Shown in pieces: positions 37,657-43,669 of a DNA stretch of 64,000 bases; the stretch's first letter is position 1, and every line of letters begins with the position of its first letter. The position numbers and the translations under genes are program-made. The notes under the pieces were generated by a model that ran no database searches, was not told where the DNA came from, and saw only the letters and a list, made by a program, of their open reading frames with translations. The stretch is from a virus, in the IMG/VR virus record IMGVR_UViG_3300021185_002646, positions 1 through 64,000 of that record. One strand, written 5' to 3'.

Positions 37657-38755
37657 TCAAGACATTAAACTAGACTACAGTGACGTTTTAATTCGTCCAA
37701 AGCGTAGTACATTAAGTTCACGCAAACAAGTAAGACTTGAACGCAAGTTTAAATTTAGAAACAGCAGACATGAGTACGAAGGTATTCCTATTATGGCTGC
37801 TAACATGGATGGTGTTGGAACATTTGAAATGGCAGATGAACTTGCACAACAAAATATATTTACATGTTTAGTAAAAACATATTCAGTGGAAGAACTTGTA
37901 GATTTTTTTAACAATGATTATCCAGATAATAGAAGAACACAAAACATTGCTATGAGCATTGGTACCGGAACAATAGACTTTGATAAGTTAGAAGCCGTGT
38001 ATAATAAAGTAAGCAATAAACTAAAATATGTATGTATGGATATTGCAAATGGTTACAGTGATCACTTTGCACAACATGTTAAAAAAGTTCGTAATGCATT
38101 TCCTAATTTAGTAATTATAGCAGGTAATGTAGTAACTGGAGAGATGACAGAGGAGTTAATTTTAAATGGAGCAGACATCGTTAAAGTCGGAATTGGACCA
38201 GGAAGCGTGTGTACAACACGAATCCAAACAGGAGTCGGGTATCCGCAACTTAGTGCAGTCATTGAATGTGCAGATGCGGCACATGGACTTGGTGGACATA
38301 TTATTGCTGATGGGGGCTGTAACTCTAGTGGTGATGTGGCTAAAGCATTTGCTGGCGGTGCCGATTATGTAATGCTAGGCGGTATGCTTGCAGGACACGA
38401 TCAAGGTGGCGGCGAAGTTATTAGTAAGATGTATGCAACTAATGAATGGCTCACAGCAGAAAAACCTTTACTTGAACAAAAACAGTTTGTGGCTTTTTAC
38501 GGAATGAGTAGTGATGCAGCAAATACAAAACACTTTGGAGGACTAAAAGACTATCGTGCAAGCGAAGGACGAGAAGTACTAGTTCCATACAGAGGTGCAG
38601 TACAGCACACCATACAAGCAATCTTAGGTGGGTTGCGTAGTACTTGTACATATGCAGGTGCAATGAAATTAAAACAATTGAGCAAGTGTACAACATTCGT
38701 TCGTGTTAATAATCAATTTAATCGTACATACGAAAGTACAACAACAAAAATTTAA
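37646..38755 (+). CDS. guaC: GMP reductase
   Basis: [48 protein letters not shown]. Confidence 0.93.
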
Positions 38756-38836
38756 GCTATGTTTGTAATGCAGATCGGAATTGCATAAATAAAACGGCTA
38801 AAAACATTTATCTTAGATAAATAAAAGTGTATTAAG

Positions 38837-39042
38837 AATAGCACAACGTTGTGTTATTATTTTCATATACAAAGTAGTATAGAGCGACCTCGGCTCAGAA
38901 AAAAAGAGCGGCAGTTAGTGCCACGCTAACTGACTCTGGGAAAGACCAGGGCATAACCCATGCCTTACAAGCGATACATTATGAGGTATCGTGGTAGCAG
39001 CCAGGAGAGACTGGCAAAACGGATGCTTTCCCAAAAACATCC
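38837..39042 (+). ncRNA. candidate structured RNA/leader upstream of small-protein operon
   Basis: GC-enriched intergenic DNA with six consecutive hairpins and an 8-nt complementarity between two of them. Confidence 0.55.
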
Positions 39043-39067
39043 ACATAAAATATAAACGGAGAATAAA

Positions 39068-39262
39068 ATGACTACGACATTTTTTAATGCATGGTCAAGG
39101 TTGTTCAACGGGCACCGTCGAAGTGTGGCCTATAGCAAAAACCTTATGACATATGCAAAAACTGAATATGGTAATGATTGGCTATATGCCTACACCTATA
39201 TGTTAGAACATGATGGCCAAGCACCAAAGTCTTGGCATACAAAGAAGGTAACAATAAAATGA
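39068..39262 (+). CDS. small hypothetical protein
   Basis: GGAG RBS; YAKTEYGNDW.YAY. Confidence 0.65.
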   Translation: MTTTFFNAWSRLFNGHRRSVAYSKNLMTYAKTEYGNDWLYAYTYMLEHDGQAPKSWHTKKVTIK

Positions 39263-39450
39263 CAACAACATTAATATATAAACAAACATGCGAAGTTTGT
39301 GAAAAGATTAAAAACGCAACTCTAACAGTGCTATTGGCACTTTGGGCATTTGGTGAATCATGTGGACGTGCAAGAGCGGCTGCACAGTTACATCGTGATG
39401 GGTTTCATGAAGAAGCAAAAAGTTTATACATGGATAATAAAAATGATTAA
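39259..39450 (+). CDS. small hypothetical protein
   Basis: ATGA overlap; G.ARAAAQL.R.G..EEAK.L. Confidence 0.65.
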   Translation: MTTTLIYKQTCEVCEKIKNATLTVLLALWAFGESCGRARAAAQLHRDGFHEEAKSLYMDNKND

Positions 39451-39628
39451 TACTATAACAAACAAATTAGGCTGGTTAAAACGTGCATATAGTCGCACTC
39501 AAAGTAGAAAACAAACTGAAAAGGCATTATCAGATTTAACTGATTTTGAATTGAATGATATTGGATTATGCAGAGGCGATATTAGATCAGTAGCACGTGG
39601 CGAAAAAGTTTATAGAAAGACATACTAA
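39443..39628 (+). CDS. DUF1127 family small protein
   Basis: R.T...LSDLTD.EL.DIGL.RGDI; likely start MINTIT. Confidence 0.85.
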   Translation: MINTITNKLGWLKRAYSRTQSRKQTEKALSDLTDFELNDIGLCRGDIRSVARGEKVYRKTY

Positions 39629-39697
39629 ATGTGGCCTTATACTGAAGAAGAATTAGACTTTATTAATAAGTAGAGTTTTAATCGTATAAATAGCTGT

Positions 39698-40675
39698 ATG
39701 AGTAAAGTACATCTATTATCAGAATTAATAACACGTTTGCAGAGTTTTGACACACAAGTTGATAAACTAGAACTCTTGCAGACGTATCGAAAAGAACCTA
39801 TATTTAAACGAATAATTACTATTGCATATAATCCATGGATAGATTTTGAAATGCAAGATTTCACTCCAAGACGCATGGGTAAGCAGTTTGGTATGGGACT
39901 AACTAAGTTCTTACATATTTTAACAGATATTATTGATGAAAAATATGATGAAAGAGAAAAGAACTTTTCTTGTCAAATGGCAATGAATCATATAGACGAA
40001 CGTGATGCTGCACTATTTGTTAGTTTGTTAAGACAAGATTTAGATCTAGGACTAGAGCCTGAAACAATTAACAAAGTATGGCCTGGATTAATTATGGTGT
40101 ATCCACTAAGTACACCAACAGTAGCAGATTATAAAACATTTCACAAATATCCAGCAGCAGTACAACCAATCAGTAGAGGTCTACGAGTTAATGTAATTGT
40201 TCATAAAGGATTAGTTAGTTACAAAGATAAAGAAGGTAACAATATTGAAGGTTGGAATATGTACGATGAGCAGTTTATTAATTTAGCACAAAACAATAGC
40301 ACAGTATTTGATGGCCATGCAGTTGTGGCAAATGGAATAACTATTGTAGAAACTGACAATCAAAAAGTATTAGAAGCAGACCCAGAAAATGTTAAGTTTG
40401 TATTTTGGGATATTATACGTTATGATGGATTTGTAAAAGGTGAAGATTCACGTATAGGTTATAACTGGCGACATAATGGACTTGAGCATATGATTATGCT
40501 TGCATTTGATAAAAACAAAACACCTTGTTATGATATTGTAAAAGCTGACCTTGTTGGAAGTGATGAACAGTTAGAATTAACTGTTAAAAAGTTTGCAAAT
40601 AAATGTGTTATAAAACGTTTAGATGGAACATGGATACGTGGAAACGATCCAACGCAAGTTATTTACGAGTCTTAA
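39698..40675 (+). CDS. T4 gp30-like DNA ligase homolog lacking catalytic lysine and OB domain
   Basis: AYNP, DL.LG...TINKVWPGLI, QPISRGLRV in place of KxDG, VFDGH, FWDII. Confidence 0.7.
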   Translation: MSKVHLLSELITRLQSFDTQVDKLELLQTYRKEPIFKRIITIAYNPWIDFEMQDFTPRRMGKQFGMGLTKFLHILTDIIDEKYDEREKNFSCQMAMNHIDERDAALFVSLLRQDLDLGLEPETINKVWPGLIMVYPLSTPTVADYKTFHKYPAAVQPISRGLRVNVIVHKGLVSYKDKEGNNIEGWNMYDEQFINLAQNNSTVFDGHAVVANGITIVETDNQKVLEADPENVKFVFWDIIRYDGFVKGEDSRIGYNWRHNGLEHMIMLAFDKNKTPCYDIVKADLVGSDEQLELTVKKFANKCVIKRLDGTWIRGNDPTQVIYES

Positions 40676-42884: not shown

Positions 42885-43295
42885 ATGGCATATAGCGAAA
42901 AAGTGCTAGACCATTACAATAATCCAAGAAATGTAGGTAAATTTGACCCCAATGAAGAGAATATCGGAACTGGTATGGTAGGTGCACCTGCATGTGGAGA
43001 TGTAATGCGTTTACAAATAAAAGTAGATGACAATGGCATCATAGAAGATGCAAAGTTTAAAACATATGGTTGTGGAAGTGCAATTGCTAGTTCAAGTATG
43101 GTAACAACTATGCTTAAAGGTATGACACTAGACGAAGCACAAGAAATTAAAAATACAACAATTGTTGAAGAACTAGCATTACCACCAGTAAAAATTCACT
43201 GTAGCGTATTGGCAGAAGATGCCATTAAAGCCGCAGTAAGAGATTACGGCGATAAAAAACAAAAAATAAACGCAAAACCGGTTGACATAACTTAG
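42885..43295 (+). CDS. iscU: Fe-S cluster scaffold IscU
   Basis: DHY.NPRNVG, APACGD, GCGSAIAS, LPPVKIHCS. Confidence 0.96.
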   Translation: MAYSEKVLDHYNNPRNVGKFDPNEENIGTGMVGAPACGDVMRLQIKVDDNGIIEDAKFKTYGCGSAIASSSMVTTMLKGMTLDEAQEIKNTTIVEELALPPVKIHCSVLAEDAIKAAVRDYGDKKQKINAKPVDIT

Positions 43296-43318
43296 TTTTG
43301 TGTTATCATAAATAACAT

Positions 43319-43618
43319 GTAACGTTGAAACTTGACTCAACGCATTTCAGGACCTCGGGGCAGTACCGAGCAGCTCCACCATAAACACATCTAGATGAGA
43401 TATTGAATCACTGCTTGGGTGTGCTTATGATGGGGCTGAAACAGGTTCGACTGGAAGGTTAGTAGGTAAGCGGAGTTATCGGGATCTAAGCACCGTTATC
43501 GCGAAGAAAATTTATAATTGCAAACGCAAATTATGAGCCAGAAATGGCATTAGCGGCTTAGTTTTAAGCACGTAGGGGTTTTGTAAGTTGAGCCTGGCAA
43601 CAGAATCAACTTACAACT
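43319..43618 (+). ncRNA. ssrA: circularly permuted (two-piece) tmRNA, alphaproteobacterial type
   Basis: T-arm CTCGG-GGCAGTA-CCGAG plus CAGCTCCACCA (ends 43381) lies before the 5' end GGGGCTG (43432; G3:U70); tag frame 43520-43561 ANANYEPEMALAA*; outer ends approximate. Confidence 0.92.
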
Positions 43619-43669
43619 AGATTATAATTAATATATTTTAGTATAAAAATAAAAATAATAGGAAAAACT

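Follow-up and report, generated by a model that had tools for sequence, protein, structure and literature searches.

A modular array of AGA-loop hairpins in the putative late-mRNA leader of a microprotein operon of uncultured marine phages

Introduction

What is the structured stretch that precedes three very small genes in an uncultured marine phage, and what might it do there? An original prediction, made from the sequence alone, had described it as a non-coding RNA of many hairpins at the head of an operon that ends in a DUF1127 gene, and had proposed a loop-loop switch near the ribosome-binding site. In this study, we analyzed this locus in a 64,000-nt stretch (hereafter, the window), which is part of an 80-kb IMG/VR viral record with an estimated completeness of 23%. 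The best explanation of region 38830-39067 is that it is the untranslated leader, about 240 nt long, of a late phage mRNA that carries three coupled microprotein genes.

The window is AT-rich, its large genes all lie on the plus strand, and it contains ten tRNAs and one permuted tmRNA. The phage encodes IF-1, IF-3, bS21 and tmRNA of its own. The two-piece tmRNA was located by ARAGORN at 43289-43652 and its tag is ANANYEPEMALAA. This permuted type, the sole hint of a host that was found, is characteristic of Alphaproteobacteria and a small number of other groups. Neither the region nor the first microprotein has a DNA or protein match among GenBank phages, which leaves the locus without a cultured relative or a host.

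Results

A late-promoter-like box precedes the leader

The leader sits between a GMP-reductase-like gene, which ends at 38755, and an ORF of 64 amino acids, which starts at 39068. Its G+C content is 0.43-0.48 over 38850-39049, as compared with 0.27-0.30 in the flanks. A T4-type late-promoter-like box, GATAAATA, is located at 38816-38823 on the plus strand and was recognized by its motif, its strand bias and its conservation in relatives. In the window, [TG]ATAAATA boxes occur 16 times on the plus strand and never on the minus strand; by sequence, these 16 boxes look like T4-type late promoters. One of them, at 39685-39692, is placed 6 nt upstream of a ligase-like gene at 39698. In all relatives examined, the extended box GATAAATA(A/G)A(A/T)GTGTAA was found upstream of the leader. 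A T4-type late transcription unit has a TATAAATA-like box shortly 5′ of its transcript, and GATAAATA is such a box; its late-promoter role is an assumption that we take from established knowledge of T4 late promoters. Because the box at 38816-38823 is conserved and strand-biased, the transcript probably starts at about 38829-38830, with GATAAATA as the predicted late promoter.

The leader is predicted to fold into an array of short hairpins

The minimum free energy of the plus strand was -61.7 kcal/mol (z = -4.92), and none of 200 shuffled sequences gave an equally good fold. The z-score of the minus strand was -2.96. All hairpins of the original prediction were recovered in place (H2 spans 38936-38949), and its view of the region as a structured non-coding RNA was borne out by the fold z-score of -4.92, by compensatory changes and by indels that are not multiples of three. 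All features described below are on the plus strand.

The first element is a 5′ hairpin at 38837-38858, a 22-nt palindrome with a 9-bp stem and an ACGU loop. Its arms vary in relatives but still pair (GUACAACGUUGUAC, ACACAAAGGUGUGU). The 22-bp palindrome noticed earlier is thus present at this position; however, it is not a separate DNA element, but a hairpin inside the transcript, 3′ of the promoter. In three relatives (L155, L003 and L129), the 5′ hairpin is missing and the promoter adjoins the hairpin H1 directly. A further hairpin that had been overlooked, H0 (UAUAC AAAGUA GUAUA), is located at 38866-38881 and occurs in three compensated versions (UAUAC/GUAUA, UGUAC/GUACA and UGUGC/GCACA). 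By sequence comparison, the 5′ hairpin and H0 are clade-specific insertions into the 5′ end of the leader.

The 5′ module (38882-38908) follows and consists of H1 at 38882-38896 (GAGC, loop GACCUCG, GCUC), an A-run at 38897-38905 and GAG at 38906-38908. Its consensus is RAGC, loop GACCUCR, GCUY, followed by an 8-9-nt A-run and by GAG, which never varies. H1 is closed by G-C in 19 sequences and by A-U in 18, and this pair is intact in all of them. The GAG can pair with CUC in the loop (38889-38891), and this pairing would give an H-type pseudoknot with an A-rich third loop. CUC and GAG are both invariant, and the R of the loop changes together with the base before GAG: A occurs with U (29 sequences) or G with A (8), never mixed. 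This A:U to G:A switch beside CUC/GAG is suggestive, and may represent one evolutionary event.

An inserted hairpin at 38912-38932 (CAGUUAGUG CCA CGCUAACUG) is confined to the clade of the window; it is missing from 9 of 24 close relatives and shows compensatory changes in three of its nine pairs. H2 at 38936-38949 (CUGG GAAAGA CCAG) is the first hallmark hairpin, with three of four pairs compensated. H3 at 38950-38964 (GGCAU AACCC AUGCC) is invariant among close relatives and is replaced in the wider family by variants that also pair (GGCGU/ACGCC, GGCUG/CAGCC, CGGAU/AUCCG and AGCAU/AUGCU). In H4 (38965-38997), an outer stem, UUAC/GUAG, encloses an inner hairpin at 38971-38992, which varies in length and is missing from short forms; 7 of 11 pairs are changed on both sides among close relatives. 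H5 at 39000-39015 (GCCAG GAGAGA CUGGC) is the second hallmark hairpin, with four of five pairs compensated, a loop of the class NARAGA and a G-C closing pair. The final hairpin, H6, at 39021-39042 (GGAUG CUUUCCCAAAAA CAUCC) contains the pyrimidine motif UUCC. It is invariant in the clade of the window and homologous to GGUAUUGCUUYCCUCAAGCAUCC of other clades; its stem covaries in L059 and L060 (GGAUUC/GAAUCC versus GGAUGC/GUAUCC). The Shine-Dalgarno sequence of the first microprotein gene, GGAG, is at 39058-39061, 6 nt before the ATG at 39068.

Because the leader has gained and lost whole hairpins and carries non-triplet indels, for example a 2-nt AT insertion after 39017, it is non-coding. 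On the same grounds, a small ORF inside it (38960-39055) was ruled out as a coding sequence. No plus-strand terminator was found between the leader and the first ORF in the window. In one relative (L110:10871-10986, minus strand), the leader and the ribosome-binding site are separated by an additional perfect hairpin (CACAGCUAGUGAGUAGCUGUG) and a U-rich tract. Judged from its sequence, this element may be a terminator, which would make the leader a separate RNA in that phage.

Stems covary and loops are conserved among 83 leaders

Relatives were recovered by protein-guided and motif-guided scans of IMG/VR. In total, 83 distinct leader sequences were obtained, on uncultured marine viral contigs. 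In every one of them, the RNA precedes the operon, at a fixed position between the late promoter and the ribosome-binding site and on the strand of the operon. Among 24 close relatives, 96.5% of the pair cells are standard pairs, versus 25-38% when the partners are slid. Conservation with compensatory changes was found at two levels: both sides are changed in 18 of 47 pairs among the 24 relatives and, in a model-fitted family alignment of 72 distinct rows, in 19 of 20. The latter alignment is biased towards the model. Only the plus strand is compatible with the conserved G·U pairs (for example, in 24 of 24 and 17 of 24 relatives). A covariance model built from ten short forms of the leader gave 88 matches in 97 sources, exactly one per locus and on the strand of the small ORFs; the window, and likewise the complete 80-kb record, contained a single match.

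When the window is compared with its relatives, the identity of the leader is 93-99%, whereas the DNA of the adjacent first ORF reaches just 65-84%. This points to constraint on sequence as well as structure, and fits either a conserved partner (protein or RNA) or a recent lateral spread of the module; the high identity even in stems could reflect such horizontal spread.

AGA-loop hairpins are the hallmark of a modular family

The G-C-closed GA(A/G)AGA loops that had been noticed in two hairpins, H2 and H5, proved to be real and to be the hallmark of the whole family. Each of the 83 leaders contains one to four AGA-loop hairpins, whose loops have 6-7 nt and end in AGA. The closing pair is G-C in 153 of 157 and the loops are carried by 40 different stems. 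GAAAGA is the most frequent loop (48), followed by AAAAGA (24), GAGAGA (21), GAUAGA (19), CAAAGA (14) and others. UGAC often stands directly 5′ of these hairpins. GGA spans the border of stem and loop in GGGAAAGA and AGGAGAGA; it is missing from the 14 CAAAGA loops and from part of the AAAAGA loops.

The other parts of the leader are exchangeable to different degrees. The final hairpin with UUCC is common to most members, in the form given above for other clades or as GGAUGCUUUCCCAAAAACAUCC in the clade of the window, and is followed by an AU-rich spacer and the Shine-Dalgarno sequence. In L026, L046 and L047, the UUCC loop is lost (AACCAUA). Many members possess a GGCAU...AUGCC hairpin and a UUACAAG junction, which has room for one more variable hairpin. 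The 5′ module does not belong to the family core, because other clades have in its place a long, unrelated hairpin with a CA-rich linker. Measured from the promoter box, leader length ranges from 79 to 226 nt across the family.

The leader has no counterpart in Rfam and no cellular copy was found

The leader was compared with Rfam 15, with E-values up to 10 admitted, on 2.5 kb and on 195 nt, and only chance-level matches were obtained. The best plus-strand scores were 9-15 bits, against gathering thresholds of 34-60 (E = 3.6-5 on 195 nt). No known family matched, and the predicted novelty of the RNA stands. The match to Flavi_CRE (14.6 bits, E = 3.6) was rejected as a coincidental CUGGGAAAGACCAG hairpin. 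It should be mentioned that CUGGGAAAGACCAG at 38936-38949 agrees letter for letter with the first hairpin of this Rfam family from the flavivirus 3′ UTR, almost certainly by coincidence; the likeness shows that RNAs without any relationship can share this G-C-closed GAAAGA hexaloop.

A cellular copy of the RNA was not found when 185,579 prokaryote genomes were scanned for exact motifs. The nine matches to the 5′ motif were attributed to chance and comprised archaeal tRNA antisense sequences followed by an A-run and two GC-rich Myxococcota sites. The archaeal cases, L092-L098, are Marine Group III MAGs in which the 25-nt 5′ motif coincides with the antisense of the 5′ half of a tRNA, followed by an A-run; these matches come from one lineage and their number is the expected rate for a scan of 596 Gb. 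The 3′ motif gave seven chance matches and three phage-like contigs binned into MAGs. In the latter (L209, which is PBPT01000016.1 of 335,231 bp, L204 and L206), the late promoter, the leader and the microprotein module are all present in full. Their bins are assigned to Neomarinimicrobiota and Flavobacteriales; the contigs are probably giant phage genomes that were mis-binned, and the 335-kb contig may be near complete.

The leader is a new, phage-only family of modular hairpin-array RNAs, with a possible overlap with the 8,495 unnamed candidate RNAs predicted in a survey of IMG/VR in 2023 (PMC10690425).

The leader is followed by a variable cassette of microproteins

As predicted, three coupled ORFs of about 60 codons are located downstream of the leader on the plus strand. 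Microprotein A (39068-39262, 64 aa) belongs to the family with the motif AKTEYGNDW, microprotein B (39259-39450, 63 aa) has the pattern CxxC ... GRARAA..L.R.G.H.EAK, and microprotein C (39443-39628, 61 aa) is a DUF1127 protein. A and B overlap by ATGA (39259-39262), and B and C by 8 nt (39443-39450). The assignment of the last ORF to DUF1127 was confirmed by a match to PF06568 (E = 1.5e-9), which scores 37.8 bits, above the curated cut-off of 23.3, and covers profile positions 2-37 of 37. Microprotein A does not match any Pfam family; its relatives are encoded at 64 viral loci, and a back-translation scan for the exact AKTEYGNDW motif found none in the 185,579 prokaryote genomes. Its AF2 model consists of two helices (pLDDT 69.5) and is too plain for a structure search. 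Homologue and Atlas searches with A and B yielded unnamed viral or metagenomic proteins only; for B, the ESM Atlas contained viral hypothetical clusters only. The B family recurs in most of the related operons.

Five microprotein families recur 3′ of the leader, in operons whose proteins have 50-90 aa: A (AKTEYGNDW), B (CxxC ... GRARAA..L.R.GYH.EAK), C (DUF1127), D (VDLVDLERRQ ... NLKGWI) and E (AMEYRSYCM). Typical gene orders are A-B-C, as in the window, A-C-B(-E) and A-D-B. None of the families is universal among the related operons, DUF1127 included. For example, A is missing from five operons that begin with C (L103, L117, L152, L163 and L132), B is missing from L003, L129 and L155, and C is replaced by D in about a dozen operons. 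Because no microprotein family is universal, the RNA goes with the cassette as a whole rather than with DUF1127; a role of DUF1127 as a required partner is unsupported, given its absence from the A-D-B operons.

Microproteins of families A, C and D share the C-terminal motif N(x)NL(K/R)G(W/F)(V/I), which was found in small ORFs of L103, L152, L112, L145, L164, L052 and L166. The sequence of this motif hints at a common docking or sorting signal. In the window, the gene after the cassette encodes a T4-ligase-like protein of 325 aa. In several relatives (L102, L130, L164, L169 and L126), genes for a cupredoxin and a DoxX-like membrane protein often follow; the cupredoxin is pseudoazurin/plastocyanin-like with the motif MLNKRDDGAKMVYS...GHNVEF, and these genes are found 1-1.5 kb 3′ of the leader.

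The complementary loops do not covary

The original prediction had noted that UGGGAAAG (38937-38944) is exactly complementary to CUUUCCCA (39026-39033). This is correct for the window. However, the 8-bp kissing loop or switch derived from it did not hold in the family, where the two partners vary independently and without compensation. The H2 loop occurs as GGGAAAG, GGAAAG, GGCAAAG and GGGAUAG, and the final loop as CUUUCCC, UUCCCUC, UUUCCUC, CUCUCCUC, UUUUACUU and AACCAUA; several lineages keep just 2-4 possible pairs of this type. In the single-sequence minimum free energy structure, the UGGGAAAG/CUUUCCCA helix closes a multi-branch fold, whereas the consensus fold favours local hairpins. 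The predicted unpaired probability of the Shine-Dalgarno sequence was 0.48, as compared with 0.45 when the leader was dinucleotide-shuffled (n = 58, not significant), and its sequestration was rejected. A riboswitch has a fixed aptamer and an expression platform. The leaders contain one to four hallmark hairpins in 79-226 nt with two unrelated 5′ modules, and neither a terminator nor a sequestered Shine-Dalgarno sequence was seen. Thus, because there is no compensation, no sequestration and no plus-strand terminator, a kissing-loop or riboswitch mechanism is unsupported.

Leader and genes occur together in marine RNA libraries

The leader-operon stretch was present in six marine metatranscriptome runs from different studies, four of which were examined. 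In these four, RNA contigs extend from 38969 in the leader through all three ORFs into the next gene, and one starts at 38850; no contig covers 38744-38847. These contigs come from RNA libraries in which carry-over of DNA is possible. In three metatranscriptomes, leader unitigs had a depth of 38-162x, versus 5-10x for the ORF contigs. The k-mers of the leader are common to co-occurring strains (loose ends of L006-, L109- and L145-type variants were seen). Because several strains share them, the excess in depth cannot be read as a released small RNA.

Discussion

Among the closest known systems are the CIN1 loci (cuckoo/CcsR/NfeR, Rfam ar14; ccaF1-ccsR1-4 of Rhodobacter sphaeroides), in which a multi-hairpin RNA with pyrimidine-rich loops is co-transcribed with a small DUF1127 protein. 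The phage RNA differs in several respects. It lies 5′ of the genes, whereas CIN1 sRNAs are located in the 3′ UTR of the DUF1127 gene. Purines predominate in its hallmark loops (NARAGA), while those of cuckoo/CcsR RNAs are CCUCCUCCC; this motif was not found in the phage leader, whose loops are GACCUCG, GAAAGA, GAGAGA and CUUUCCCAAAAA. DUF1127 is dispensable in many phage operons, and two to four other microprotein families are involved. Moreover, the phage RNA has no match to the Rfam model, and the 185,579 prokaryote genomes did not yield a cellular copy. In other words, the phage RNA is a variation on a theme, namely a small-protein gene co-transcribed with a multi-hairpin RNA.

The sponge sRNAs CsrB, RsmY and RsmZ present GGA loops and CrcZ presents A-rich motifs. 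The phage leader resembles them in having a variable number of short hairpins, one fixed loop motif and covarying stems. However, its loops end in AGA, with GGA in only part of them, and it belongs to an mRNA leader without a known partner protein; the likeness to Csr/Rsm RNAs is architectural only. The leader of T4 gene 32 contains a pseudoknot that is bound by the encoded protein for autoregulation. It shares with our RNA the position in a phage leader, a possible H-type pseudoknot at the 5′ end and an accessible ribosome-binding site 3′ of it. The sequences are unrelated, however, the downstream proteins are not related to gp32, and the putative pseudoknot described here can be exchanged for a plain hairpin. 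In topology, the 5′ module (a 4-5-bp stem, a 7-nt loop and GAG after an A-run of 8-9 nt) is also similar to preQ1-I and SAM-II/SAM-V riboswitches, but it has no covariance-model match and no expression platform, and many family members lack it.

We tentatively propose, as a plausible rather than an established reading, that the leader is a putative protein-binding array, which would control the stability or translation of the late operon mRNA, rather than a metabolite sensor. A late transcript from the T4-type promoter would carry the leader and the microprotein cassette; the repeated, sequence-invariant AGA loops would be docking sites for a protein, which could be a co-encoded microprotein (for example, of the RNA-binding DUF1127 type) or a host factor; and docking would determine how stable the operon mRNA is and how well it is translated. 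We favour this reading because a loop sequence that stays fixed while its stems covary and its copy number changes is the pattern of a protein-docking array, and because DUF1127 proteins are RNA binders whose genes, in Alphaproteobacteria, share transcripts with multi-hairpin sRNAs: CcaF1 binds RNA and helps to mature the sRNAs co-transcribed with it (PMC8034643). That the leader belongs to the operon mRNA is supported by the lack of a terminator before the first ORF and by the RNA contigs that span the leader and all three ORFs. Against a protein-binding leader stands the finding that no microprotein family is present in every operon. The predicted accessibility of the Shine-Dalgarno sequence, which is the same with a shuffled leader, argues against a simple translational effect, none being visible in silico; and the extra hairpin and U-tract of L110 suggest that the RNA can end before the genes.

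The main rival reading, possible but less likely, is that the leader is cut from the mRNA, as CcsR is from the ccaF1 transcript, and acts in trans as a stable RNA. Such an RNA could sponge a host RNA-binding protein through the repeated loops, or base-pair with host mRNAs or ribosome-binding sites through the pyrimidine loops GACCUCR and UUCCC. The near-invariant sequence, beyond what structure demands, is as expected for contacts in trans, the CCUC and UUCC loops resemble anti-Shine-Dalgarno seeds, and the RNA does not depend on the presence of any single downstream protein family; the terminator-like hairpin of L110 and the depth of the leader unitigs (38-162x versus 5-10x in three metatranscriptomes, a comparison confounded by the k-mers common to several strains) point the same way. 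However, the window contains neither a terminator nor a mapped processing site, and the loops that would do the pairing are missing from some members: UUCC is lost in L026, L046 and L047, and whole clades lack the GACCUCR module. Further from our expectation, and unlikely, is that the leader and the microproteins together form a phage-made RNP. The AGA array would be released, loaded with DUF1127 or other microproteins and used for retargeting a host RNA machine late in infection, for which the RNase E degradosome or the 30S initiation site may be the target. If true, this RNP would be a new class of phage RNA-protein device for host takeover, specific to giant marine phages.

Sensing by the RNA itself appears very unlikely. 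A ligand or temperature would toggle the leader between its local hairpins and the UGGGAAAG/CUUUCCCA helix and thereby gate translation of the first ORF. The exact 8-nt complementarity in the window, the energetic plausibility of two states (a long-range helix in the single-sequence structure versus local hairpins in the consensus) and the resemblance of the 5′ module to ligand-binding H-type pseudoknots with an A-rich loop 3 are compatible with such a switch. Nevertheless, the partner loops lack compensation, the number of hallmark hairpins varies from one to four beside an exchangeable 5′ module, unlike in a fixed aptamer, an expression platform was not seen, no Rfam riboswitch model matches even at E = 10 on 195 nt, and the downstream genes give no metabolic hint. 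The least probable reading is that the element works as DNA, as a promoter or operator cluster, a replication origin, a packaging site or a recombination hot spot. Near-identical DNA does adjoin diverged genes, inverted repeats could bind dimeric proteins, and a clade-specific palindrome adjoins the promoter. These features are outweighed by strand-specific G·U pairs that are kept, a fold z-score that differs by strand (-4.92 versus -2.96), many stems with compensated changes around fixed loops, a fixed position between promoter and ribosome-binding site, and the presence of the region in RNA libraries.

Few non-coding elements in a large group of uncultured giant marine phages are as well conserved as this leader. 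Its rate of evolution is below that of the adjacent genes, and yet it has no catalogued relative. The covariance model can be used for annotating the family in ocean viromes and metatranscriptomes, and the [TG]ATAAATA boxes are a possible guide for mapping the late transcription units of this phage. With a minimal RNA of about 90 nt and proteins of 50-90 aa, the locus offers a small, defined system for questions of how DUF1127 and other microproteins interact with RNA. Moreover, this system could show how late phage mRNAs are stabilized or translated in oligotrophic marine hosts.
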